DNA of 64,000 nucleotides from Dehalococcoidia bacterium (lineage in GTDB: Bacteria > Chloroflexota > Dehalococcoidia > Lucifugimonadales > CAJWER01): NCBI GenBank assembly GCA_963666125.1, contig OY762633.1:1474935-1538934 (forward strand). The letters are read 5' to 3'. Below the pieces are notes generated by a model. It worked only from the letters and a program-made list of their open reading frames with translations. It did no database searches and was not told the DNA's origin. Shown piece by piece: positions 22,499 to 33,961 of the stretch (its first letter is position 1; each line of letters starts with the position of its first letter). A program made the translations under genes and the position numbers.

Positions 22499-23773
22499 AT
22501 GTCAGGCCAGAACCCCCTATTCGACCCGCCCGGCGAATCCAGCGACTCCTTCGAGCTTTCGAGGTTCTCGATAAGGCGCTACTCGATGCAGCAGGGGCTG
22601 CTCGTCCTTGCCATCATATGCCTGCTCATAGCGATGAACGTCCAGGCAGCGCTGAATGGCAACGCCGTACTGGTGGCCCTGGCCGCGGCTACTCTCGTGC
22701 TCATGCTGGTCCTGACGGGCCTCATCCTCTTCGTAGGCGTACGGGCCGTGGCGGTCGAGATGTGGATCCGCCGGCTGGGAATGGGCGACTTCGAGTACCG
22801 GATCGAGCCGTGGGGCAAGGACGAGGTGTCCAAGCTCTGCGAGGCCCTGGAAACGCTGAGGCAGAGCTCCATCCGGGCCATGCGGCTCGACCTGGTGCAG
22901 AAGCTGTCCGACGAGCTCCAGGCCAAGAACGCCACCCTGGAAGAGACCCTGGACGAGCTGAGGAAGACCCAGGACCGCATAGTCAGCCAGCAGAAGCTGG
23001 CCGAGCTGGGAGAGCTGTCCGCCGGCATCGCCCACGAGATACGCAACCCCCTCCAGTTCATCAGGAACTTCGCCGAGTCCTCCCAGATCATGGTCGACTC
23101 CCTGAGGGAGATGTCGGAGGAGGACGAACCCCTCGACCTGGAGGAGGTGGACGACCTGACCCGGGACCTCGTCGAGGCCACGGGCCACATAATCACACAC
23201 AGCGAGAGGGCCGACCGCATCGTCGAAGACATGCTGGCACTGGGACGCAAGGGCAAGGGGATTTTCGGCAGGGTCGACCTGAACCAGCTCCTGGCCGACC
23301 AAGCCCGGCTGGCCTACCAGGCGGTCCAGTCCCAGGAGCCGGGCTTCAGCGCCGCCGTCCGTCAGGAGCTGGACGAGGACCTGGGAGATATCGTCGCGGT
23401 GCAGGAGGACCTGGCGCGCGTCTTCACCAACATGGTCACCAACGCCTGCCACGCCATGGCCGAGCGGGCCAAGTCGGCGGGGGACGAGTACGAGCCGGAG
23501 CTGAAGATAGAGAGCCGACGGACGGACGAGGGAGCGGAGATCACCATCAGGGACAACGGCATTGGCATGACGGCCGAGGTCGCCTCGAAGATCTTTAACC
23601 CCTTCTTCACCACCAAGGAGAGCAGCGCGAGCACCGGACTGGGGCTGAGCCTGTCCCGGGACATCATCCGGGAGCACGGCGGCCGGATTGCGCCCGCGTC
23701 GGAGCCCGGGGAGTACACCGTCATGACCGTGAACCTCCCCCGCGATCCCGAGGCCTCGAGGAGAGCGGAATGA
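22499..23773 (+). CDS. Sensor histidine kinase (2 TM, HAMP, HisKA, HATPase_c); no adjacent response regulator
   Basis: 424 aa. The H-box is [14 protein letters not shown], the N-box is [11 protein letters not shown]1 is RDNGIGM and G2 is STGLGLSLS. Confidence 0.85.
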
Positions 23774-23848: not shown

Positions 23849-24856
23849 CTACCGTCCACTCTGCCTCTTAATGCGTTCAATGGACTGCTGAATCTTTGTG
23901 ACCTCGTACAGGCACTTGTCCTGCTGTTCCGGGGACATTCGATCTAGGTCGGCCAAGAATTCCGGGACCTGCATTTCCCGCCTGAAACGTTTGAACCGAC
24001 GCAGCCACATATTGTCGACGCCACGGTCCTGTGCGCTCTCAAATGCCCTATCAAATGTCTTGTCACCAGATAAGAGTATCTTGGTCGGCTCCGGGCCCAC
24101 CTTGGCCGTATCAAGGAGTTTGACCAGCTTGTCTCTCACATCCGGCGAGCTTGGAATCTCCCCGCCCTTAATCTTCCTAACGACTACGTCATCGAGCTCC
24201 GGGTTTTCGCGACGAGCCTTCTTCACTATGTTGGACTTCAGGTACTCGAAGTAGTAGCTCCACCGTGTAACGCTGGTCTCATCGTGTTCAACCATGAACT
24301 TGTATGTGTCGATGAGCTGGTTCACCTTTCTCTCCGATAGTCCCATCTCGCTTGCCATACTCTGAGCACTGACCTCATGGGTGACGTTTCTGCGGTATAG
24401 GTAGCCCGCCTGTTCGTAGGGAGCCCAGTCCTTTCTGCCAATGATGTGGTACTCGCCTAGCAGGGCGAACACGAGCTTCTCGCTGATGTCGCCGGGGAGC
24501 AGCCGAACTTTGGCCTTGCCCCACGTCTTGAGGTCGTTTCTAGCAAGCTCGCGGTATGCGGCGAGTCGACTGTTTCCTTCAAGCACTACGAGATCGCCAT
24601 CCCTCACAAGCATGGGGTCTGTCAGTCCACCGTTTGCCCTGATTGACTGAAAGAGCTGCTTGACGTGGTCCGACCCTCTCAGTCTATTGAAGATCTCTTC
24701 CTGGGACGGTTCAACACCCGGCCTTTGAATTAGCGAATATATCCTTGGATTCTCCGGATAGAATTTGAGATCGTGAATCGGAAGATATCCGTTCCGGACC
24801 GGTATCTCCTGACCACCAAGCGTAAGAGTGTCGTTGACCCATGCAGAATCAGTCAT
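23849..24856 (-). CDS. ParB/Srx-fold N-terminal domain protein with predicted HTH (island gene 6)
   Basis: 335 aa. The core reads KFYPENPR..SIRANGGLTDPMLVRDGDLVVLEGNSRLAAYRELA. It is a paralog of 26782-27831. An AGGAGG SD lies 8 nt upstream of the ATG. Confidence 0.75.
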   Translation of the reverse strand: MTDSAWVNDTLTLGGQEIPVRNGYLPIHDLKFYPENPRIYSLIQRPGVEPSQEEIFNRLRGSDHVKQLFQSIRANGGLTDPMLVRDGDLVVLEGNSRLAAYRELARNDLKTWGKAKVRLLPGDISEKLVFALLGEYHIIGRKDWAPYEQAGYLYRRNVTHEVSAQSMASEMGLSERKVNQLIDTYKFMVEHDETSVTRWSYYFEYLKSNIVKKARRENPELDDVVVRKIKGGEIPSSPDVRDKLVKLLDTAKVGPEPTKILLSGDKTFDRAFESAQDRGVDNMWLRRFKRFRREMQVPEFLADLDRMSPEQQDKCLYEVTKIQQSIERIKRQSGR

Positions 24857-24877
24857 TGTCCATGCCTCCTAGTTGGT

Positions 24878-26347
24878 CTATGCATCCAATATGGCCCGCA
24901 GGATGTCCCCAAATTCGTAGGACATCTCCTTCTGGTATGTCTCCCTGTCGATGTCGCCCTGCGCGAGCTGCGCTGCGACCTGCTTGGAGTGAAGCAGCGC
25001 CTCAACCCATTCGTCTATCGAGTCACGCATAATCAGGTTGTGAACGTGGCAAACTCTGTCTTGGGATATCCGATGGATCCTGTCCTGTGCCTGCAGGTAG
25101 TCGTCCAAGCTGAACAGCCGGTCGTAGAAGATGACGTGGTTCGCTACGGTCAGAGTCAGCCCTTCCTTGGCGGAGCCTGGGGTGGCAATGAACACCTTTG
25201 CACTCGGCTCATCGATAAAGGTGCGAATCGCGTCGGTCTGCTCCCTAGTACTCAACAGTCCGTGGACTAGCTGAGGATTGTGTTGGCTCAGAATTCTTGC
25301 CAGCCACTCGACATTTTCAACGAACGACGTCCAGACTATGCATTTTTCACCATCTCTAACTATTGATGAGACCAGCTCAAGCAGGGTCTCCAGCTTCCCG
25401 GGCTCGACCCGGTAGCTCGCATCAATCAGGTTGGGATTCGACGTCACCTGTACCAACCTGAGCAGGCGCTTCAACACCAATTCCGACTCGTCGGCCATGA
25501 GTTGCCCATCCTGGAAGATGATAGCTCGCAGAGACTCCCTGACCTGCCTGTACAACTCCTGCTGCCGGGGCTCCCATTCGGTCACCAAAGAGTGGACAAC
25601 TTTGTCAGGAAGGCTTATCTCGGCGCTTGCCTTCGTCTCCCTTACGGCAAACCCCGATATCGAGTGGAATATGCGCTGTAACTGAATCTCCAAGGCTTTC
25701 TGCCGACTTTCAGCACCGGCTAAGTCGTTCGACAGGTTCACTGATCGTTTGAATTCCCCAAAATCATCTCCAAGCGACGCGCCGTCGTCAAGGAACTTGA
25801 TCTGCGACCAGATGTCGTGCGGGCGATTTGAAACTGGGGTCCCGGACATAATAACCCGCCTGGTGAACAGAGGCGCAAGATCGAGGAATGTCATGGTGAG
25901 AGCAGCGTCGGGGTTCTTGATCTTGGTTGACTCGTCCAGAATCACCCCGACATTCCTAGTCCTGAGAAATAGATGCATCCGCTCCTTCTCGGCTTTCACG
26001 GCCTCGTAGTGAGCAAGCATGACCCGGGCGGGACTATTGAAGACATAGAAGTTCCCACCACGGTTGTTGGTCAGGATTCGAGGAACGAGTTGAGAGTGAG
26101 AGGAAAGTTCCCTCTGCCAGTTGTCAAGGAGTCCCTTCTTAACAACTATCAGGGCAGTGTCCAATAGCTGGTGAGACAGCCAGTAAACAATGAGGTCTAT
26201 CGCAACCTTCGTCTTCCCCAACCCCTGTTCATGGAATATGGCGGCATACTCGAGATCCTTGACCGCATTGACAGCCTCCAGCTGGTATGCGAATGCCTCG
26301 TGCTTCAAGGTGAGGTCTGGCTCTCTCTTTAGTGTCAATTTCTGCAA
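24878..26347 (-). CDS. SNF2-family helicase/translocase (island gene 5)
   Basis: 489 aa with a TTG start. Motif I is EQGLGKTK, II is LDESTKIKN and III is MSGTPVSN. The C-terminal lobe reads GLTLTVANHVIFYDRLFSLDDYLQAQDRIHRISQ. Confidence 0.88.
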   Translation of the reverse strand: MQKLTLKREPDLTLKHEAFAYQLEAVNAVKDLEYAAIFHEQGLGKTKVAIDLIVYWLSHQLLDTALIVVKKGLLDNWQRELSSHSQLVPRILTNNRGGNFYVFNSPARVMLAHYEAVKAEKERMHLFLRTRNVGVILDESTKIKNPDAALTMTFLDLAPLFTRRVIMSGTPVSNRPHDIWSQIKFLDDGASLGDDFGEFKRSVNLSNDLAGAESRQKALEIQLQRIFHSISGFAVRETKASAEISLPDKVVHSLVTEWEPRQQELYRQVRESLRAIIFQDGQLMADESELVLKRLLRLVQVTSNPNLIDASYRVEPGKLETLLELVSSIVRDGEKCIVWTSFVENVEWLARILSQHNPQLVHGLLSTREQTDAIRTFIDEPSAKVFIATPGSAKEGLTLTVANHVIFYDRLFSLDDYLQAQDRIHRISQDRVCHVHNLIMRDSIDEWVEALLHSKQVAAQLAQGDIDRETYQKEMSYEFGDILRAILDA

Positions 26348-26351
26348 TGAG

Positions 26352-26789
26352 TCAACCTTCCTGATGTGGCTGTAACATCAGCCGATTCATTTCGGACAGA
26401 ACGACGATTTCAACGTGAAGCAATCCCTCTCTGGCCTGGAAGTTCGCGAGTCGTGCCCTAGCGAGTCTCTCAATAGGCCATGGCACCGCCAGTATGAAGG
26501 CCGAGCCTTCCGACATCCCACATCTTCTCAGGAATGCCATGATCTGAGCTTCGGTATGTGAGTTCTCCAGGTCCCTCATGCTCTTGGCTTCGCCGATGAC
26601 TACTCTTCCCTGTTCGTTGAGCATGACATAGGCGTCGGGCACATACCCTCCAATAGGCGGCGGGCGATTAGGCGATTCACCGCCAACGGAGTCGGTAAGG
26701 ACACGTTCCCTCCGACCTCCACAGAACCTATCCCCGATGTAGTTGTGAAGTATAGCAACCAAGTTTAAGTGTTCCTCTGATTCAGGCAC
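26352..26789 (-). CDS. PD-(D/E)xK nuclease-fold protein (island gene 4)
   Basis: 145 aa with a GTG start that overlaps the upstream stop by 8 nt. A helix-1 Glu lies in SEEHLNLV. The core VPDAYVMLNEQGRVVIGEAKS gives PD-x14-E-x-K. Confidence 0.6.
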   Translation of the reverse strand: MPESEEHLNLVAILHNYIGDRFCGGRRERVLTDSVGGESPNRPPPIGGYVPDAYVMLNEQGRVVIGEAKSMRDLENSHTEAQIMAFLRRCGMSEGSAFILAVPWPIERLARARLANFQAREGLLHVEIVVLSEMNRLMLQPHQEG

Positions 26790-27831
26790 TGGTTGAAGAG
26801 GGTGAGACGATGAGCTTGCAGAGTTGAGCCAACTGGTCCCTGGTCTCAGTCAGAGCGAGATTATCGGGAGTGTTCAGGTCTTCGCGAAGACGCAGGAGGT
26901 CTGTGTAGCTCATCTTTTCTATGTGGTCCAACAGCGCATTGGCGAGCTGGGTAAGTGTGGCGTCCTTCAGCGCCTCTACCGTGGAGGGAGTGTCCAGAAT
27001 CTTTTCTGCTTCACGTGCTCCATCAGTCAGGAATACGCTCCGCGCCTGCGGATTGGCGAGGATTGCAGGGAGCCTCCTGACACGGTCGAGTGGGTACAGA
27101 ATCTGGTCGTTAACCCACCCAGCGAAATCTGCCTTTGTGTATCCCGAGGTCACGAGAGCTTCCTGTACCCGTGGGGCTTGCATCTCAACAAAAGCACTGA
27201 ACCGCGTCGGGTCAAACTGGTCGTCACTGGCAAGGAGTGGCCGGTAATGGTTCTCCATGTCGTTGTAGGCGTCGATGAATCGGTGCACCTCGGCCTTCTG
27301 CCCTCCGCAGAAATCAACGATCTGATCAGTTGTCAGGTGCTCGGAGTTGCTGAGATAGTCCAAGTACTTTGCCTTCGAGTATGGGTCCCACTGTCTTGGG
27401 CCGACCAGATGGGCCTGTAGCCGAATGGCATCGATCTCCTTTTCATCAAGCCGTTCGTACACGATTGCCGGGATTTCGTCCCATCTATCACTATCATCGT
27501 CGCTCCTCCTGAACTGGCGATAGATCAGGGCACGGGTGTTTCCCTCGATGACGACAAGCCTGTCTTCGTCCTCTCTGTTGACCAAGATGGGATGGATTAC
27601 ACCTCCATGGGTCCTGATTGATGCCCTCAGACTCTGGAATGTGGTCGTGCTCTCACCCTGCTCATAATTGGCGGCGCCAAGAGCCAGACTCATCTGATCA
27701 TCGGTCACTTCGCCGCCGTACATCTCAATGTAGCGCGCCACCCGGGGATTGGACGTATCAAGCACAAGCGTTTCGACCGGAAGCATCATGAATTGACCGT
27801 TTCTTGCAGCCATATTGTTTCTCTCCATCAA
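26782..27831 (-). CDS. ParB/Srx-fold N-terminal domain protein with predicted HTH (island gene 3)
   Basis: 349 aa. The start is TTG 27831 or ATG 27828, immediately after the upstream TAG. The core reads LDTSNPR..SIRTHGGVIHPILVNREDEDRLVVIEGNTRALIYRQF. Confidence 0.75.
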   Translation of the reverse strand: MMERNNMAARNGQFMMLPVETLVLDTSNPRVARYIEMYGGEVTDDQMSLALGAANYEQGESTTTFQSLRASIRTHGGVIHPILVNREDEDRLVVIEGNTRALIYRQFRRSDDDSDRWDEIPAIVYERLDEKEIDAIRLQAHLVGPRQWDPYSKAKYLDYLSNSEHLTTDQIVDFCGGQKAEVHRFIDAYNDMENHYRPLLASDDQFDPTRFSAFVEMQAPRVQEALVTSGYTKADFAGWVNDQILYPLDRVRRLPAILANPQARSVFLTDGAREAEKILDTPSTVEALKDATLTQLANALLDHIEKMSYTDLLRLREDLNTPDNLALTETRDQLAQLCKLIVSPSSTSA

Positions 27832-29370
27832 CTAGTCTGAATTTATATCTGAACTATTTTGCCCGACCCTGGAGGCTTCTGCGAACACTAATTCAATCAA
27901 CCCCATTGCGGAGCTCGGTGAGGGCGAGAGAGTCGCCAAAGCTCCAAATACCCTCTGATACACAACGACCTCTGAGGGAGTCATTTTATCGAACCTATGC
28001 AGCTCTGTATCAACTGAAAAGTTGTTAAGTTCTCCCTCCACATTACTGAGCCTCTCAAGAGTGCCGTTATCGAGACTATCCTTACCGATGCTCTTGCGAA
28101 GTTCCTTGATTTCCCGCAATGCCTCTTTGACCAACCCGTCCGAGTCCTCTGCAGTGAGATAACCGGACGTTGCCAAAGCACAGATGTCCTCAACGTTGCA
28201 CAGTGATGAGAGAGCCTTCCTGGCACGGTTACGAGCCATGGACTCCCGTCTACACCGCGTACTTATATTGCGTAGCACGGGGGTCAGTTGGTTTTCGAGA
28301 TTCCGCAGATGGGGGCCAGGTTCAAAGTAGTCACGTCTGGCGTTGGGAATGATCCGTGAGTCCAGGACATGCAACTCTCCCACACACCATCGATTGAACC
28401 GTTCCTCTGTAAAGAGGTCGTCGAACACCGCCTCACCACCAATCTGTATGTTCCCAACCCTGGCCTTGATGCCACGCACTCGCTGTTCTTTTGGGATCGC
28501 GCCCAAGTAGGGCGAGTGTGCGATCCAACCAACGGCCGCTTCACCATTGTGGTCGACGCTTGGTATATGAACCATCTGGAAATCCGTAAAATCAGCCTCC
28601 TTATTTACCGAGAGCCAGATTGATTTCCCATATGGTCTCTCTATCGGATCTGGATCTCCTTCCAGCAGCACTTCCAACGTGAGAGGTGCCTCAGTGCCAT
28701 CGAATAGCCCTTCGACTTCCTTGGCAAATGGGAACCCGGAACTCAAGGGCACTGGACACACTTCGCCGATATAGTCGCGGACCGCGTCACGATTGAGCAG
28801 CAGTCCCGCGGAGTGACGCGCCACATCTCCGACTTCGACCTCGAAGAAGTGCTCAGGATAATCCGAAGCTGGCAGGGTTTCCACATTGACGCAGTCAAGA
28901 ATGGCCTCCTCGAGCTCCGACTCGGTGGAGGTCAGTTCGGGAAGCCGATCGCTATGCCATGTGATTCGGGTTACCGCCTGGTTCTCGCTGGCTCGTGTTG
29001 TGAATGAGACTGTCTTTGCGAAGGCAAGCCCGGCCAGCCGTCCAACGCCACGGAAGCCCCTATCGATTCCCAATGTCTTGTCACTGCGGCCAATGGGCAA
29101 CAGCCGCCCAAGCGCTTCCTCGCGAGACAGACCAGGGCCGTGGTCTCGAATCCTGATCCGGCGCTCAGTGACATCGATAGCGATATCCACTCTTGCTCTT
29201 CCGGGTAACCCGCTCCCCGCGACTGCGTCTGCCGCATTCTGTATGTACTCCCTGTACATGGACAGCGGAGCATCGTACATCCCTGTTGTCACAAGCCCGA
29301 GTAGTCCCGCACCCGAGAGCGCTGGGGTGTTCTGGGTGACAGGCGCCAACTCAGTCACGTCTGCGCTCAT
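27832..29370 (-). CDS. GHKL (Bergerat-fold, HATPase_c_3/MORC-like) ATPase (island gene 2)
   Basis: 512 aa. The N-box is YREYIQNAADA, G1 is IRDHGPGLS and G2 is DRGFRGVGRLAGLAF. Its start overlaps the radical SAM stop (ATGA at 29367-29370). Confidence 0.8.
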   Translation of the reverse strand: MSADVTELAPVTQNTPALSGAGLLGLVTTGMYDAPLSMYREYIQNAADAVAGSGLPGRARVDIAIDVTERRIRIRDHGPGLSREEALGRLLPIGRSDKTLGIDRGFRGVGRLAGLAFAKTVSFTTRASENQAVTRITWHSDRLPELTSTESELEEAILDCVNVETLPASDYPEHFFEVEVGDVARHSAGLLLNRDAVRDYIGEVCPVPLSSGFPFAKEVEGLFDGTEAPLTLEVLLEGDPDPIERPYGKSIWLSVNKEADFTDFQMVHIPSVDHNGEAAVGWIAHSPYLGAIPKEQRVRGIKARVGNIQIGGEAVFDDLFTEERFNRWCVGELHVLDSRIIPNARRDYFEPGPHLRNLENQLTPVLRNISTRCRRESMARNRARKALSSLCNVEDICALATSGYLTAEDSDGLVKEALREIKELRKSIGKDSLDNGTLERLSNVEGELNNFSVDTELHRFDKMTPSEVVVYQRVFGALATLSPSPSSAMGLIELVFAEASRVGQNSSDINSD

Positions 29371-31010
29371 ACGATCTGCGTCCCCTTGACTGCGAGTGCT
29401 TCATCGTGATCGAAGAGTCCAGCATCTTCAACGACTTCGTCCTCCTCAAGGTAGGTGCCACTCCCGGTCATTTTCTCCATGAGCTGGCGACCGTTCGTCT
29501 TCGCGTCCTGTCTGGTGTCCAGTCCATGGAATGCCATCAACTGTCGTATCTGGTGGTCGATCGTTTGGTCATTCGCCAACTCCCGGAAATGTTTCGGGCC
29601 CATTCCATTCCCGTTGGATGGATTGGCCAGTAGATGCACGAACTCATTCTCCTGAGACTCTGAAAGGCTCCTGCGAAGCGACTCGTACTCCTCCCTTTGG
29701 GCTCGCCCTTCCCCATCCTCAAAATACTCTCGATGGAATATGAAGGCGTGCGGCAGCCTGAGCAGCCGCTCAAACTCCTCGGCGTTTTCTCCATAGGCTC
29801 TCAGGAAGAAGGACGGGCTGCCGCTCACAACTCCCCTAGTTGCCTGGAGCATAATTTGGAACGAACGGAGGTAGTATCGGTTCCATTTCTTGCCCACGTG
29901 TGACCGATCCTTCAATGTCACGGGCTGGTAGCGCATTGGGAAGGACCAGATACGGACCCCAAGCTCTTCATTAAGGTCGATGTTGAGATGCATTCTCTGG
30001 TAGAGGTCTGACGGAGTGTCCATAAAGTTATACAGCATGTAATTCGACAGGGAGGTGATCTGGTTGTCCGCCGCCATGCGAATTGACTTCTCATAGACCT
30101 TCCTGACACCGATGTGATCGAAAGCGACTCGCAGCGGGCTGATGCAGATGGTGGACATTTCACGTAGGAACATATCCGACTTGGCGAGGATTCGTGCATC
30201 CACCCCCTGGTTGAAGTCCACCCGCCGCTTGACCGATCTGTTACCATCGCGAGTTAGCTTGGCTCCGGGCGTAAAGCCCAGATCGCGAATCTCGGCAATC
30301 ACCTCCCTGTAACGCGTTGACGCCGTGATGTTGTTGTCCATGAGCACGAGGTCCTTCTTCTCCCCATGCCTTTCAGTCACCCTTTCAACCAGATTGGTAA
30401 GGGGTGGCATCTCTCGCTGCGCACCCTCCAGCTTCGGCACCCCACAGAAAGAGCACTTCCTCACACATCCACGAGATGCGTAGCCGAAGTAGGCATCATG
30501 GACAGGGTAACGGTAGTCGATATGTTCGAGGATGCTATAGTCGGGAACCAGTTCCTCGATCGGCGTGCCGGCTAGGTCGTCAGCGCCAAACTCATATTCG
30601 TCTGCCGACAGGGCTAGAGACGCTGCGGGAGGGCCATCGAGCAGACCCTTGATGAAACGTACCCCGGCCCATCTGGGTACGTTTAGGAAAGCGTCGTGCA
30701 TGAGCGAGACTGCGATGCCGCCGACAAAGACGCGCTCCCGTTGATCGTGTGCCGCACGTATGGCGAAATCGATAGCCGAGGCTGTGCGCTTCCACTCGAA
30801 AGTGAAGAGTGTGGTGACATACACTCGGTCCCATGCTTGCTCCAACGCTTCCTTGTCTTCGCCCTTCATGAAGGTGACGCGGTCTCCTCGACCAAATGAG
30901 CCGTGATAAGCGGCGAGCTTCATCAGACCCAACGGCGGATACTTGTTGGGGTAGCTAGGCTCGATAAGTAGGATATTCCTCATAGCACCAGGGACACAAC
31001 AAGCCACCAT
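29367..31010 (-). CDS. Radical SAM enzyme with N-terminal B12-binding-type domain (island gene 1)
   Basis: 547 aa; an alternative start is the Met of MRNILLIEPS at 30983. The Rossmann-like N-terminus reads ILLIEPSYPNKYPPLGLMKLAAY. The cluster motif is GYASRGCVRKCSFCGVP (CxxxCxxC). A ~150-aa acidic C-terminal extension has no motif I recognise. Confidence 0.8.
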   Translation of the reverse strand: MVACCVPGAMRNILLIEPSYPNKYPPLGLMKLAAYHGSFGRGDRVTFMKGEDKEALEQAWDRVYVTTLFTFEWKRTASAIDFAIRAAHDQRERVFVGGIAVSLMHDAFLNVPRWAGVRFIKGLLDGPPAASLALSADEYEFGADDLAGTPIEELVPDYSILEHIDYRYPVHDAYFGYASRGCVRKCSFCGVPKLEGAQREMPPLTNLVERVTERHGEKKDLVLMDNNITASTRYREVIAEIRDLGFTPGAKLTRDGNRSVKRRVDFNQGVDARILAKSDMFLREMSTICISPLRVAFDHIGVRKVYEKSIRMAADNQITSLSNYMLYNFMDTPSDLYQRMHLNIDLNEELGVRIWSFPMRYQPVTLKDRSHVGKKWNRYYLRSFQIMLQATRGVVSGSPSFFLRAYGENAEEFERLLRLPHAFIFHREYFEDGEGRAQREEYESLRRSLSESQENEFVHLLANPSNGNGMGPKHFRELANDQTIDHQIRQLMAFHGLDTRQDAKTNGRQLMEKMTGSGTYLEEDEVVEDAGLFDHDEALAVKGTQIV

Positions 31011-31028: not shown

Positions 31029-31058
31029 ATTGTACGCCAACGGACGGACGGCTGCCAA
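31029..31058 (-). promoter_or_regulatory. Candidate sigma70-type promoter of the island operon
   Basis: The minus strand reads TTGGCA (31058-31053), an 18-nt spacer, then TACAAT (31034-31029). It lies 19 nt upstream of the ORF start at 31010. Confidence 0.4.
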
Positions 31059-31077
31059 GACCCACCGCCTAACATAT

Positions 31078-31100
31078 GCCAAGGGTTGACGGTCCTTGGC
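31078..31100 (-). terminator. Stem-loop downstream of shc (possible terminator insulating the island operon)
   Basis: gccaagg-gttgacggt-ccttggc gives 7-bp arms. On the minus strand it is followed by ATATGTT. A second palindrome, GGAGGCCTCC, lies at 31107-31116. Confidence 0.35.
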
Positions 31101-31118
31101 AGTCTAGGAGGCCTCCCG

Positions 31119-33137
31119 TCAGTTGGCGGTGCTCTTCGCCGTCCCCTCTTCCGCGTACCGGCGGAAGCGCCCCAGGGCCATCAGCGGCCAGTAGTTCCTG
31201 TAGAGGTCGTACCTGATCATGAACCCGGCGGGTAGCTCGCTCCCCTGCTGCCGTACCTTGTCGACCCGCTGCCCCACGCCGTAGCCCGGGAATCCCGTGC
31301 CCGTGAACCAACGCTCGCTCCACGTCCCGTCCTGCCGCTGGGTGCCCGCCAGGTAGCGAATGCCGCGCTCGACGGTCGGGTGCTCCCACTCCCCGGCGGC
31401 CATAAGCGCGAGCAGCGCCCACGCGGTCTGCGACGCGGTGCTGCCGGCCCCCCGGCCCGCCAGCATCCGGTCGGCATAGCTGGCGCAGCTCTCCCCCCAG
31501 CCGCCGTCCTCGTTCTGGTGGGCCGCCAGCCAGTCCACGGCCCGGCGCACCGGCTCCCCCGTCATGTCCTGTCCCATCGCTTCCAGCGCAGGGAGCACGG
31601 CGCCGGTGCCGTATATGTAGTTGACGCCCCAGCGGCCGAACCAGGGGCCGTCCGGCTCCTGCTCGCCCAGCAGGTACTCCACCGCCCGGTGCAGTGGGTA
31701 CGCGTCCGTCGGGTAGCCGATGCGCGCGAGGGACTCCACCACGTGGGCAGTCACGTCCGCGCTGGGGGGATCGATCATCTCGCCGAAGTCGGCGAAGGGC
31801 ATCTCGGCCACAGCCCGCCGGGTGTTGTCCTTGTCGAAGGCCGCCCAGCCGCCGTTCTTGCTCTGGACACCGAGCATCCACTCGGCCCCGCGCCCGATCG
31901 CCTCCTCCTGCCTGCCGGCGTCCTCCAGCCGCACCCGCCTCAGGGCTATCAGCACCTCCGCCGTGTCGTCGATGTCCGGGTACGTCCTGTTGGCGAACTC
32001 GAAGGCCCAGCCCCCGGGCGGCGTGTTCTTCGCCTTGACCTGCCAGTCCCCTCCGTCGGAGACCTGCGCCCTCATGAGCCATTCGCCCGCCCGTCGCAGG
32101 ACCGGGCTGTCGGGGGCGAGGCCGGAGTCCTCCAGGGCGATCATCGCCAGGCACGTGTCCCAGACGGGAGACACGCAGGCCTGGACGCGCATGGAGTCGT
32201 TCTCCTCGATGACGAAGCCCTTGAACCCCTCGACGCCCTTCCGCATGGCGGGGTGATCGACCCCATATCCCAGGACCTTCAGGGCGATGAGCGAGTAGAC
32301 CCAGGGGGGCTGTATGCCGCCCCATGAGCCGTCGTCCTCCTGGTGGTCGACTATCCACTTGACGGCCTTGCGGATGGCGGTCTCCCGCAGCGGGTGCCAC
32401 GGGAGGGAGTTGTACCACCGGAACAGCCGGTCGGCCAGCCGGAAGAATCCCGCCATGCCCGTCAGGCCCCCGATTCCCACCCTGTCGGCGTGTCCGCTCG
32501 CTCCGTTCGGTACGAGCTCGGGAATGGCGGCGCCGATCGGGACCGGGCATACCGGCCTCCGCGAGAGCACGATGCTCAGGGGCAGCATGGTGCCCCTGGC
32601 CCAGCTCGAAAAGTCGTACAGGTTCATGGGCACCCACGGCGGGAGCAGCACCATCTCCGGCGGGAGCGCGGGCACGGCCTTCCAGCTCCACTGCCCGAAG
32701 AGGGCGAGCCATATCTTGGTGAAGACCCGTGTCCGCGGGATGCCGCCCCTGGACAGGATGAACTCGCGCGCCCTCGCCATACGGGGATCGTCGGGGGAAG
32801 CTCCCGCCAGCTTCAGGGCAAAGTAGCACTCGACGGTCGTGCTGAGGTCGCCGGGGGAGCCGTAATACTGCCCCCACGTGCCGTCCTCCCGCTGGGTCTT
32901 GAACAGGTGGTTCGACAGCTTCCTCCACGTATCGCCGTCTCCGATGCCCAGGAAGTGGGTCAGCAGGAGGTACTCGGCCTCCATCGTGGAGTTGGACTCC
33001 AGCTCGCCCCACCAGTAGCCCTCGGGGGCCTGGGTGCGTATGAAGTAGTCCAGGGAGCGGGCCACCGCCTCCGCAACCGCGTCCCTCAACCCCTGGTGAG
33101 CGGACGGCGCCCGGGCCTCTCGAACCTGCTGCTTCAC
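31119..33137 (-). CDS. shc: Squalene-hopene cyclase
   Basis: The track ORF 31119-33281 is trimmed to the GTG at 33137, which overlaps the hpnG stop (GTGA). The catalytic DxDD motif is in YPDIDDTAEVLIAL. There are multiple QW-type repeats (e.g. QNEDGGWGE, QREDGTWGQYYG). Confidence 0.93.
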   Translation of the reverse strand: MKQQVREARAPSAHQGLRDAVAEAVARSLDYFIRTQAPEGYWWGELESNSTMEAEYLLLTHFLGIGDGDTWRKLSNHLFKTQREDGTWGQYYGSPGDLSTTVECYFALKLAGASPDDPRMARAREFILSRGGIPRTRVFTKIWLALFGQWSWKAVPALPPEMVLLPPWVPMNLYDFSSWARGTMLPLSIVLSRRPVCPVPIGAAIPELVPNGASGHADRVGIGGLTGMAGFFRLADRLFRWYNSLPWHPLRETAIRKAVKWIVDHQEDDGSWGGIQPPWVYSLIALKVLGYGVDHPAMRKGVEGFKGFVIEENDSMRVQACVSPVWDTCLAMIALEDSGLAPDSPVLRRAGEWLMRAQVSDGGDWQVKAKNTPPGGWAFEFANRTYPDIDDTAEVLIALRRVRLEDAGRQEEAIGRGAEWMLGVQSKNGGWAAFDKDNTRRAVAEMPFADFGEMIDPPSADVTAHVVESLARIGYPTDAYPLHRAVEYLLGEQEPDGPWFGRWGVNYIYGTGAVLPALEAMGQDMTGEPVRRAVDWLAAHQNEDGGWGESCASYADRMLAGRGAGSTASQTAWALLALMAAGEWEHPTVERGIRYLAGTQRQDGTWSERWFTGTGFPGYGVGQRVDKVRQQGSELPAGFMIRYDLYRNYWPLMALGRFRRYAEEGTAKSTAN

Positions 33138-33961
33138 CAAGTGGCCACCCTCGTACGGGAGCTCGCGAAGCCCACGACGAAGGCGGTCAGTGAGTCCCGC
33201 GCCGCCGAGGCAGCGCCGCCGAGCCGGACCGCCGCCGGAATCGACCAGGGCCGGAGGATGACCGGCAGCACGTGCCGCCACCGGCTCCCAAGCCCTGAGT
33301 CCAGGGCGAACGAGGCGACGAAGCCCGGCAGCGGACGCTCCACGGGGTCCACGATGGAGCGCACGGCGAGGAACGGCACGTCTCTCTCACGGCAGGCCGC
33401 GCCTATCCAGAAGCTCTCCTCTTCCACTGCCAGGGCACCGGTCCTGAGCCCCAGGCGCCTCTTCTCGTCGGGATCCGATACGATATGGGAGGCCGTCACG
33501 CAGGCCCCTGCCTCGTGGCGCAGTCCCAGCCCCGCAAGCACCCGCAGCGCCTCGTCAGCCAGCCTCCCGTCCGTCCGTAGGGGCGGACCCACGTGTCCGC
33601 CCTCCCCCGCGTGGCCGCCGTCCGCGGGCGTCAGGGTACGGGCGACGACCAGGTCTCCCACGCGCTGGCCGTCAACCAGCCCGCCGGCGAAGCCGAGGGA
33701 CAGCACGGCGTCGGGGCGGCGCTCCTCCAGGACCTCGCGGACCGCCGCCTCGGCCCGGGCCCGGCCCACGCCGCTCACGGCAAGCACTGCCTCCACGCCG
33801 CCGACCCGGCCATCGTATGCCGCCTGGGACGCGGACGGCGCGACCCTCCGCCAGTGACCCGCCTCGAGGACTCCCCGGGCCTCATCCTGCAGCGCAACGA
33901 CCAGGGCCAAGTACCCTCCCACCCGTCTAGCTGGCTCCGACCCTGGCGCGATTGCCGGCAA
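33134..33961 (-). CDS. hpnG: Hopanoid-associated phosphorylase/nucleosidase (HpnG-like, PNP_UDP_1 fold)
   Basis: 275 aa as the maximal ORF. A GTG at 33922 (VGGYLALVV) would remove the 35-nt overlap with hpnH. Nucleosidase-type segments are present: LAVSGVGRARAE, LSLGFAGGL, AVEEESFWIGAA..VPFLAVRSIVD. Confidence 0.8.
   Translation of the reverse strand: MPAIAPGSEPARRVGGYLALVVALQDEARGVLEAGHWRRVAPSASQAAYDGRVGGVEAVLAVSGVGRARAEAAVREVLEERRPDAVLSLGFAGGLVDGQRVGDLVVARTLTPADGGHAGEGGHVGPPLRTDGRLADEALRVLAGLGLRHEAGACVTASHIVSDPDEKRRLGLRTGALAVEEESFWIGAACRERDVPFLAVRSIVDPVERPLPGFVASFALDSGLGSRWRHVLPVILRPWSIPAAVRLGGAASAARDSLTAFVVGFASSRTRVATW

Follow-up and report, generated by a model that had tools for sequence, protein, structure and literature searches.

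Two ParB-like paralogs enclose a putative nuclease and an SNF2 motor in a mobile bacterial gene cassette

Introduction

ParB-type cytidine triphosphate (CTP) switches are known from chromosome and plasmid segregation, from nucleoid occlusion and from KorB-type gene silencing. To our knowledge, the ParB-superfamily proteins known in defence (DndB, DpdB and DUF262/GmrSD) belong to other branches. Here, we analysed a stretch of 64,000 nucleotides (nt) from a Dehalococcoidia bacterium (assembly GCA_963666125.1, contig OY762633.1, positions 1,474,935 to 1,538,934), in the following called the window. Two ParB-like proteins, ParB_A and ParB_B, are encoded there in a cassette of about 7.2 kb that consists of six densely packed minus-strand genes. 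The two proteins are anciently diverged members of a distinct subfamily of the ParB/Noc/KorB class, which we named EGNxR-ParB. We lean modestly towards the view that the cassette is an undescribed modification-restriction defence system of the Dpd/Dnd-like kind, in which the ParBs would act as nucleotide-gated DNA loaders or clamps for a nuclease and a motor. The genes and motifs of the cassette are as follows.

23849-24856, minus strand: ParB_A, 335 amino acids (aa), with a beta-hairpin N-terminal extension, a ParB N-domain, a helix-turn-helix (HTH) and a helical C-terminal domain
24566-24580, minus strand: EGNSR motif of ParB_A, counterpart of the GERR of ParB Box II (coordinates verified)
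24743-24751, minus strand: NPR motif of ParB_A (coordinates verified)
24878-26347, minus strand: minimal SNF2-family ATPase, 489 aa, core domains only
26352-26789, minus strand: p145, putative PD-(D/E)xK nuclease, 145 aa; its start overlaps the ParB_B stop by 8 nt
26782-27831, minus strand: ParB_B; the length of 349 aa counts from the TTG at 27831, but the ATG at 27813 (343 aa) is the likelier start
27532-27546, minus strand: EGNTR motif of ParB_B (coordinates verified)
27742-27750, minus strand: NPR motif of ParB_B (coordinates verified)
27832-29370, minus strand: Hsp90/HtpG-like GHKL ATPase, 512 aa, with intact ExxxN, DxGxG and GxxGxG motifs
29367-31010, minus strand: radical S-adenosylmethionine (SAM) enzyme, 547 aa, with a B12-binding-like N-domain, coupled to the GHKL gene by a 4-nt overlap

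For ParB_B, the ATG at 27813 was preferred over the TTG at 27831 since the database orthologues begin there. The initial annotation had placed the two ParB genes at 23849-24856 and 26782-27831 and had described them as bracketing a nuclease and a helicase gene. Both open reading frames are present on the minus strand, all peptide segments quoted there are found in the translations, and the 145-aa protein (a nuclease, putatively, by its motif) and the SNF2 ATPase lie between them. The pair sits within a larger cassette of 5-7 genes that extends beyond this four-gene core.

The logic of the cassette is like that of Dpd and Dnd, and its motor is like ZorD and DrmD, yet the genes that define each of these systems are missing. 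Like Dpd, it is a modular multi-gene cassette with an SNF2-type helicase (E 2.5e-35 to the DpdE model), and in related loci a DGQHR/DpdB-like protein is coupled to the presumed DNA modifier. Unlike Dpd, the system lacks preQ0 genes and has a radical SAM enzyme in the role of the presumed modifier, and the cassette of the window encodes no DGQHR protein. Membership in Dpd was rejected, as only the motor part of the SNF2 protein matches DpdE and neither the DpdA transglycosylase nor DpdC was matched. With the phosphorothioate systems Dnd/Ssp, which use DndB, the cassette shares a ParB-superfamily protein that accompanies a modification module and a separate restriction module. In contrast to these systems, no homologues of DndACDE or SspABCD are present, ParB_A and ParB_B are not DGQHR proteins and the chemistry may differ. 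The two paralogs were also rejected as DndB/DpdB members: they carry EGN(S/T)R, have no match to TIGR03187 or to the Pfam DndB model and reach less than 2% in hhalign to the DGQHR family.

Among SNF2 effectors, the motor is closest to the models of ZorD (E 4.7e-45) and DpdE, and its position beside a PD-(D/E)xK nuclease recalls the Mrr-like fusion of ZorD. Unlike ZorD, DrmD of DISARM and the type ISP/III-like motors, the motor and the nuclease of the cassette are separate minimal proteins without targeting domains. Membership in Zorya or DISARM was discarded because the SNF2 core alone matches ZorD and DrmD, and ZorABC and DrmABC were not matched. With the PADLOC candidates PDC-M38A and PD-Lambda-5_A, which are much longer proteins, the similarity lies in a ParB-like stretch of about 100-200 aa at the N-terminus (E 1e-10 to 3e-4). 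These alignments cover about 60-220 of 454-715 profile positions (E 1e-10 to 0.03) and the partner components remained unmatched, so that PDC-M38 and PD-Lambda-5 were rejected as well. The polyvalent ParB-methylase-helicase proteins of phages and plasmids likewise associate a ParB domain with SNF2-type helicases and DNA-modifying enzymes. They are giant single polypeptides of invading elements and contain methyltransferases, whereas here separate genes, including one for a radical SAM enzyme, form a cellular cassette.

No model for the ParBs of the cassette, p145, the GHKL protein or the radical SAM enzyme is held by PADLOC v2, NCBIfam 2026 or Pfam 2025. A description of the cassette was not found in open-access full-text papers and bioRxiv, a scope that excludes most subscription journals. 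The statement of the initial annotation that no described system has such a duplication stands within these limits, since the libraries gave weak or generic matches and the open-access literature none. An obligatory pair or trio of Noc/KorB-class ParB paralogs is apparently a notable and undescribed feature.

Paralogy and fold of ParB_A and ParB_B

ParB_A and ParB_B are true paralogs. BLASTP aligned them with 29% identity across 211 aa (E 3e-18), and the profiles of the two families, built from cross-phylum orthologues, matched in hhalign with a probability of 99.5% (E 4.3e-22, 233 columns). The hhalign match spans residues 24-264 of ParB_A and 10-264 of ParB_B and takes in the N-domain, the HTH and a portion of the helical C-terminal region. 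The similarity goes far beyond chance and, as first aligned by eye, continues past the ParB-N core.

The library models matched the two proteins weakly, with E 3.8e-4 for ParB_B to Pfam ParB_N and E 2.7e-4 for ParB_A to TIGR00180. ParB_N was matched by ParB_B and 13/42 family members, below the gathering score. The phage ParB PHROGs also matched both paralogs weakly (E 1e-5 to 1e-7), and a better match for both was the uncharacterised phrog_3694 (5e-15 and 7e-13). Searches of the PDB with the single sequences of the paralogs returned noise only, and profile searches reached ParB only at E ~0.03. Because sequence and profile searches were too weak, a comparison of folds was needed to settle the question.

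The AlphaFold2 (AF2) model of ParB_A had a predicted local distance difference test score (pLDDT) of 83. Its 34 top PDB hits in Foldseek were all Noc, ParB, KorB, pNOB8 ParB or PadC, with E-values down to 2.6e-6 and alignments covering the N-domain and the HTH. The ParB_B model (pLDDT 68) had ParB and Noc as top hits (E 7.5e-4). For both models, the Foldseek probability to ParB/Noc/KorB was 1.0, which places the proteins in the ParB/Srx superfamily and agrees with the fold named in the initial annotation. In both, the N-domain is followed directly by the HTH, as in the ParB/Noc/KorB class, and the structural alignments extend for about 200-250 columns over these two domains. A helical C-terminal domain completes each protein. 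A hidden Markov model (HMM) alignment of the family to 7bnk covered residues 61-180. In BFVD, the structural hits of ParB_A were phage ParB-like proteins.

The EGNxR-ParBs therefore share with the CTP-dependent clamps ParB, Noc and KorB the fold, the domain order with a nucleotide-binding N-domain before the HTH, and the top structural matches. They differ from these clamps in the motifs treated below and in the C-terminal domain. Unlike the clamps, they have no ParA or KorA partner that we could find, and two or three co-encoded paralogs stand together with a nuclease, an SNF2 protein and a radical SAM enzyme. Scans with Pfam, PADLOC and NCBIfam detected no ParA-like protein among the six cassette genes, whereas a ParABS system would encode a cognate ParA ATPase. 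As a side observation, residues 164-223 of ParB_A, which follow the HTH (window ~24188-24367), gave a weak profile match (E 0.01) to the "putative pore-forming toxin" PDB 3kog. This is probably chance or a shared helical motif.

The nucleotide pocket

The conserved residues were analysed in an alignment of 39 orthologues of the two paralogs, which come from Chloroflexota, Planctomycetota, Spirochaetota, Acidobacteriota, Proteobacteria, Firmicutes and candidate phyla. The columns N36-P37-R38, L68, I72, G77, G94-N95-x-R97, W112, H137, W144, Y147, A150, M188, S200 and R241 were invariant in both families, and P146 was conserved to at least 90% across both. In 36 ParB_A orthologues, the segment LEGNSRLAA was invariant. 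When the family was aligned by HMM to the ParB of M. xanthus, GN(S/T)R fell on GERR and H137 on the Asn of ENLQR, so that EGN(S/T)R indeed stands where the initial annotation had located the Box II counterpart. The HMM alignment starts downstream of NPR, and the NPR motif was assigned to Box I (QPR) by motif order.

Canonical ParB needs the Gln of Box I, the Glu of GERR and the Glu and Asn of ENLQR for CTP hydrolysis and clamp closure. These catalytic and closure residues are absent from ParB_A and ParB_B, which instead have N36, N95 and H137, conserved in both families. The Box III Glu is not found at the equivalent position, where ParB_A has Tyr or Phe and ParB_B has Ala. Kept in ParB_A are the Pro-Arg of Box I, the Gly and the last Arg of Box II and the RxDxxPxExA stretch. 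The retrieved structures include the Q52A and E93A mutants of residues that are substituted here (7bnr, 7o0n). Since the Gly and Arg that bind phosphate and the Pro-Arg of Box I are kept while three residues (now N36, N95 and H137) are replaced in a fixed way in both paralogs, the motifs suggest that both have retained a nucleotide or ligand pocket of altered chemistry.

Conservation of the pair

The gene order was compared in 38 species-representative genome loci; four of these are truncated at contig ends, and another has only a remnant. The order ParB_B, p145, SNF2, ParB_A was found in 33/33 loci with enough sequence and the pair was never split. The same core order occurs in seven IMG/VR loci and on rhizobial plasmids. 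Each ParB query led to ~2,690 clusters at 90% identity. When 1.84 billion representatives were searched exhaustively with a profile, 400 proteins were returned at E <= 1e-30; nearly all of these stand alone and are 320-350 aa long.

The A and B families are reciprocally monophyletic, with identities of 33-89% within a family and 17-26% between the families. Across the loci, the pairwise identities of the A orthologues and of the B orthologues are correlated with r = 0.88. The duplication is ancient and the paralogs are obligatorily paired and co-inherited.

A divergent variant with three paralogs is found on plasmid p187_1 of Bradyrhizobium sp. 187 (L051:8863-12061), where three tandem EGNxR-ParB genes stand ahead of a nuclease-like and an SNF2 gene. 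All three proteins have the EGNxR motif, the His, the W.P and the A, and each is ~27-29% identical to both A and B. The genes for the DGQHR, radical SAM and GHKL proteins are convergent to the trio.

Two Dehalococcoidia loci showed further ParB-like sequences. At L013:11258-11998, an extra ParB-like open reading frame directly downstream of ParB_A encodes a product 26% identical to ParB_A (E 8e-20). At L038:10001-10276, on a chromosome, only a C-terminal ParB_A-like fragment is left (residues 244-335, 53% identity), which looks like a decayed cassette.

Partner genes

In p145, P51-D52(x14)E67-A68-K69, D73 and Q82 are invariant in 20 orthologues from many phyla. Searches of Pfam, NCBIfam, PADLOC and PDB sequences gave no match for this protein, and by its motif signature it is a putative PD-(D/E)xK nuclease. 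The SNF2 protein matches Pfam SNF2-rel_dom (E 3.6e-27) and Helicase_C (E 5.6e-15), and its Walker A (EQGLGKT), DESxK and other motor motifs are intact. We regard it as a bare motor because its matches are restricted to the C-terminal motor segment of the much longer ZorD, DpdE, DrmD and SCO1167-type proteins.

The GHKL protein matches Pfam HATPase_c_3 (E 2e-8) and, in a PDB profile search, HtpG (E 1e-12), and its ATP-binding motifs are intact. Four loci (L017, L024, L026 and L027) have no GHKL gene, and in these a shorter radical SAM gene (458-476 aa) follows directly after ParB_A. The GHKL ATPase is therefore not universal, though it is the usual companion of the radical SAM enzyme.

The radical SAM enzyme has a single CX3CX2C motif with the invariant residues C182, C186 and C189 and no auxiliary-cluster cysteines. 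The superfamily motif is thus present; the Pfam Radical_SAM match is weak, and phrog_9298 was matched with E 2.8e-39. The gene stands beside the core in ~30/33 assessable loci. It may be upstream or downstream of the core or divergent from it, and how far its sequence has diverged does not parallel the divergence of the core. From the variable position and orientation and the independent divergence we conclude that the modules are shuffled and that the system is modular.

In 9/38 loci and on two rhizobial plasmids, the radical SAM gene is preceded by a translationally coupled DGQHR (DpdB/DndB-like) gene. Examples are L016:9560-10627, L018:11003-12070, L029:5829-6842(-), L041:11032-12084 and L051:17209-18249(-), among others. 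The protein matches TIGR03187 (E 2e-37) and DpdB (E 2e-23), and cassettes that carry it hold three or four ParB-superfamily proteins. The gene is absent from the cassette of the window and from the Dehalococcoidia loci.

Mobility and phage homologues

The cassette is horizontally mobile. In the window, the block at ~23.8-31.0 kb has a G+C content (GC) of 54% and the surrounding Dehalococcoidia-like chromosome one of 66-70%. Among 15 Dehalococcoidia genomes, the cassettes have 52-58% GC and the flanks ~56-68%, with cassette and flanks alike in 2/15. The flanks differ from genome to genome, and the flanking genes of the window are common to none of the 15 Dehalococcoidia loci. The distribution is patchy across unrelated phyla.

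The cassette also occurs on conjugative plasmids near toxin-antitoxin, integrase and PIN-like genes. The seven-gene locus on plasmid pR132505 of Rhizobium leguminosarum WSM1325 (NC_012854.1, 13365-21617) has toxin-antitoxin pairs, an integrase, a UvrD-like ATPase and a GHKL + PIN-like pair as neighbours, and all cassette genes there bear generic names of the Prokaryotic Genome Annotation Pipeline (PGAP). With such cultured carriers, the function of the cassette is directly testable.

Few copies were found in phage collections: GenBank phages gave 3 weak ParB hits, and IMG/VR gave 7 loci, situated near contig ends. The cassette does not belong to the typical gene content of phages. In polyvalent proteins of phages, a ParB domain is repeatedly combined with helicases (phrog_62, phrog_498 and the helicase/polyvalent hits in BFVD). 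Temperate phages encode stand-alone, shorter radical SAM homologues (phrog_9298), which are remote (23-30% identity) and are located in regions of accessory or replication genes:

L039:6001-7083: radical SAM homologue of Marinitoga camini virus 1
L042:4989-5906: radical SAM homologue of Phocaeicola phage PV4-TP1
L043:4965-5840: radical SAM homologue of Clostridium phage phiCT453B

In PV4-TP1, DNA methyltransferase fragments, an ASCH protein and a PAPS reductase are encoded close to the gene. The homologues of the two remaining phages stand beside genes for a HerA-like helicase and an exonuclease, or beside replication genes. These neighbourhoods lend limited support to a radical SAM enzyme that acts on DNA.

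Proposed function

In the mechanism that we propose, the radical SAM module would mark DNA or, less likely, a nucleotide. Together with the GHKL ATPase and the DGQHR protein, where present, it would supply the self-mark, by analogy with DpdA and DpdB. The nuclease and the SNF2 motor would form the effector. The ParB paralogs, gated by a nucleotide, would bring these two enzymes, which lack targeting domains of their own, onto the DNA. We consider the ParBs as loaders or clamps because they are the sole core proteins with a DNA-binding domain and the nuclease and the motor are bare catalytic modules. The ParBs may assemble into an A/B hetero-oligomer, or each may form a homodimer that serves one enzyme, B the nuclease and A the motor. 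The gene order, in which B is coupled to the nuclease and A comes after the motor, hints at a separate ParB for each enzyme; a hetero-oligomer is equally possible. A more specific version seems doubtful to us at present. It holds that an asymmetric, hetero-oligomeric and nucleotide-gated EGNxR-ParB clamp targets an anti-phage/anti-plasmid nuclease-translocase and that a new DNA modification installed by the radical SAM enzyme separates self from non-self. If so, the clamp switch of ParB, Noc and KorB would here serve for the first time as the targeting subunit of such an enzyme.

If the defence reading is true, a cassette that spans many phyla would extend the ParB clamp paradigm to immunity. 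The co-evolving Noc/KorB-class paralogs would then be a natural test case for heterotypic ParB clamps, and a new enzymatic DNA mark is conceivable in view of the constant radical SAM partner.

Several observations weigh against this reading. Because all three residues for CTP hydrolysis are substituted, gating by CTP may not apply. The N-domain of ParB_B was poorly modelled by AF2, with low confidence. The flanks of the window are housekeeping genes and not a defence island. No validated defence model was matched, and the PADLOC matches to the candidate PDC-M38A and to PD-Lambda-5_A were weak and partial. The closest solved relatives of the radical SAM enzyme, themselves weak matches, are RimO and MiaB, which are methylthiotransferases of protein and RNA. 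A cognate palindromic site, as suggested in the initial annotation, was sought at 23.4-31.5 kb and no significant one was found; it may lie elsewhere or on foreign DNA. The upstream regions of 15 Dehalococcoidia loci had only a -10-like element in common and no conserved operator. The three-paralog variant does not fit a simple 1:1 heterodimer and weakens that arrangement.

It is possible, if unlikely, that the ParB paralogs are themselves enzymes, such as NTPases or nickases like Osa or the plasmid ParB nucleases, or that they are nucleotide-responsive repressors like DndB or KorB that restrain a toxic nuclease-motor operon. The ParB/Srx superfamily holds nucleases, NTPases and repressors (PMC10853773). 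Both proteins have kept the HTH, and the substituted pocket with its invariant His and Asn could be a new active site. However, no conserved operator or palindrome was seen upstream of the operon, and two or, in one variant, three co-conserved paralogs with HTH regions near-invariant across phyla exceed the needs of a simple autoregulator. A dedicated, putative nuclease is also already part of the cassette.

We consider it distinctly improbable that the cassette works by signalling rather than by self-marking. In that case, the radical SAM enzyme would make a modified nucleotide, as viperin does with CTP, and the EGNxR-ParBs would sense the product by binding it in their altered pocket and switch on the nuclease and the motor. 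The ParB fold binds CTP (PDB hits 7bnk, 7bnr and 6sdk), the pocket is conserved yet chemically changed in both paralogs, and no partner accompanies the core more constantly than the radical SAM gene. The enzyme, however, has no similarity to viperins and matches the MiaB/RimO and B12-type families. The coupled DGQHR/DpdB-like partner points to DNA as the target, as in Dpd, and a remote radical SAM homologue lies near DNA methyltransferase genes in one phage.

A module for DNA repair or chromatin maintenance is very unlikely. Here, the radical SAM enzyme would repair DNA like spore photoproduct lyase, a generally known precedent, and ParB, SNF2 and nuclease would process the lesions; SNF2 proteins and nucleases do act in repair. 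This explanation fits poorly with the patchy distribution, the foreign GC in most hosts, the variable sites and the carriage on plasmids near toxin-antitoxin and integrase genes, and the Pfam and NCBIfam scans found no similarity to the spore photoproduct lyase family. Finally, a role of the ParBs in the partition or maintenance of an integrated mobile element is hardly credible and was rejected, although the fold is that of partition ParB and the cassette is mobile. The cassette of the window has no ParA, replication gene or integrase and is no replicon, and no parS-like repeat was found at 23.4-31.5 kb. With only 7.2 kb, the cassette lies inside chromosomes at varied sites, and its order around the nuclease and the helicase is kept at every locus.

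Boundaries and minor features

Outside the six genes, the following features were noted.

31029-31058, minus strand: promoter-like site TTGGCA-18-TACAAT in a low-GC spacer upstream of the radical SAM gene, a consensus match alone
31119-33281, minus strand: squalene-hopene cyclase-like flank gene, named from its translation only
22499-23773, plus strand: histidine kinase-like flank gene, named from its translation only

The -10-like element is conserved in several related Dehalococcoidia loci in the alignment of the 15 upstream regions. The start of the radical SAM gene is ambiguous, with an alternative ATG at 30983, and related loci align to the start equivalent to 30983. In these loci, a GGAGG-like site precedes the second-ATG start; the window has no GGAGG-like site at 30983-31010. 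Direct repeats above chance were absent from 23.4-31.5 kb, and one 36-nt "repeat" reflected the paralogy at the DNA level.

A second GHKL paralog and a large protein with a PIN-like domain are encoded directly beside the cassette in four loci of two phyla, at L041:15294-18810(-), L051:18552-20732(-), L029:21-2575(-) and L036:15452-18842(-). The pair had no PADLOC match and may be an accessory module or a separate two-gene system. In the window, the space from the stop codon of the squalene-hopene cyclase-like gene to the cassette promoter contains a short inverted repeat (GCCAAGG...CCTTGGC, 31075-31105). This repeat may act as a terminator for the host gene upstream and may also mark the boundary of the cassette.

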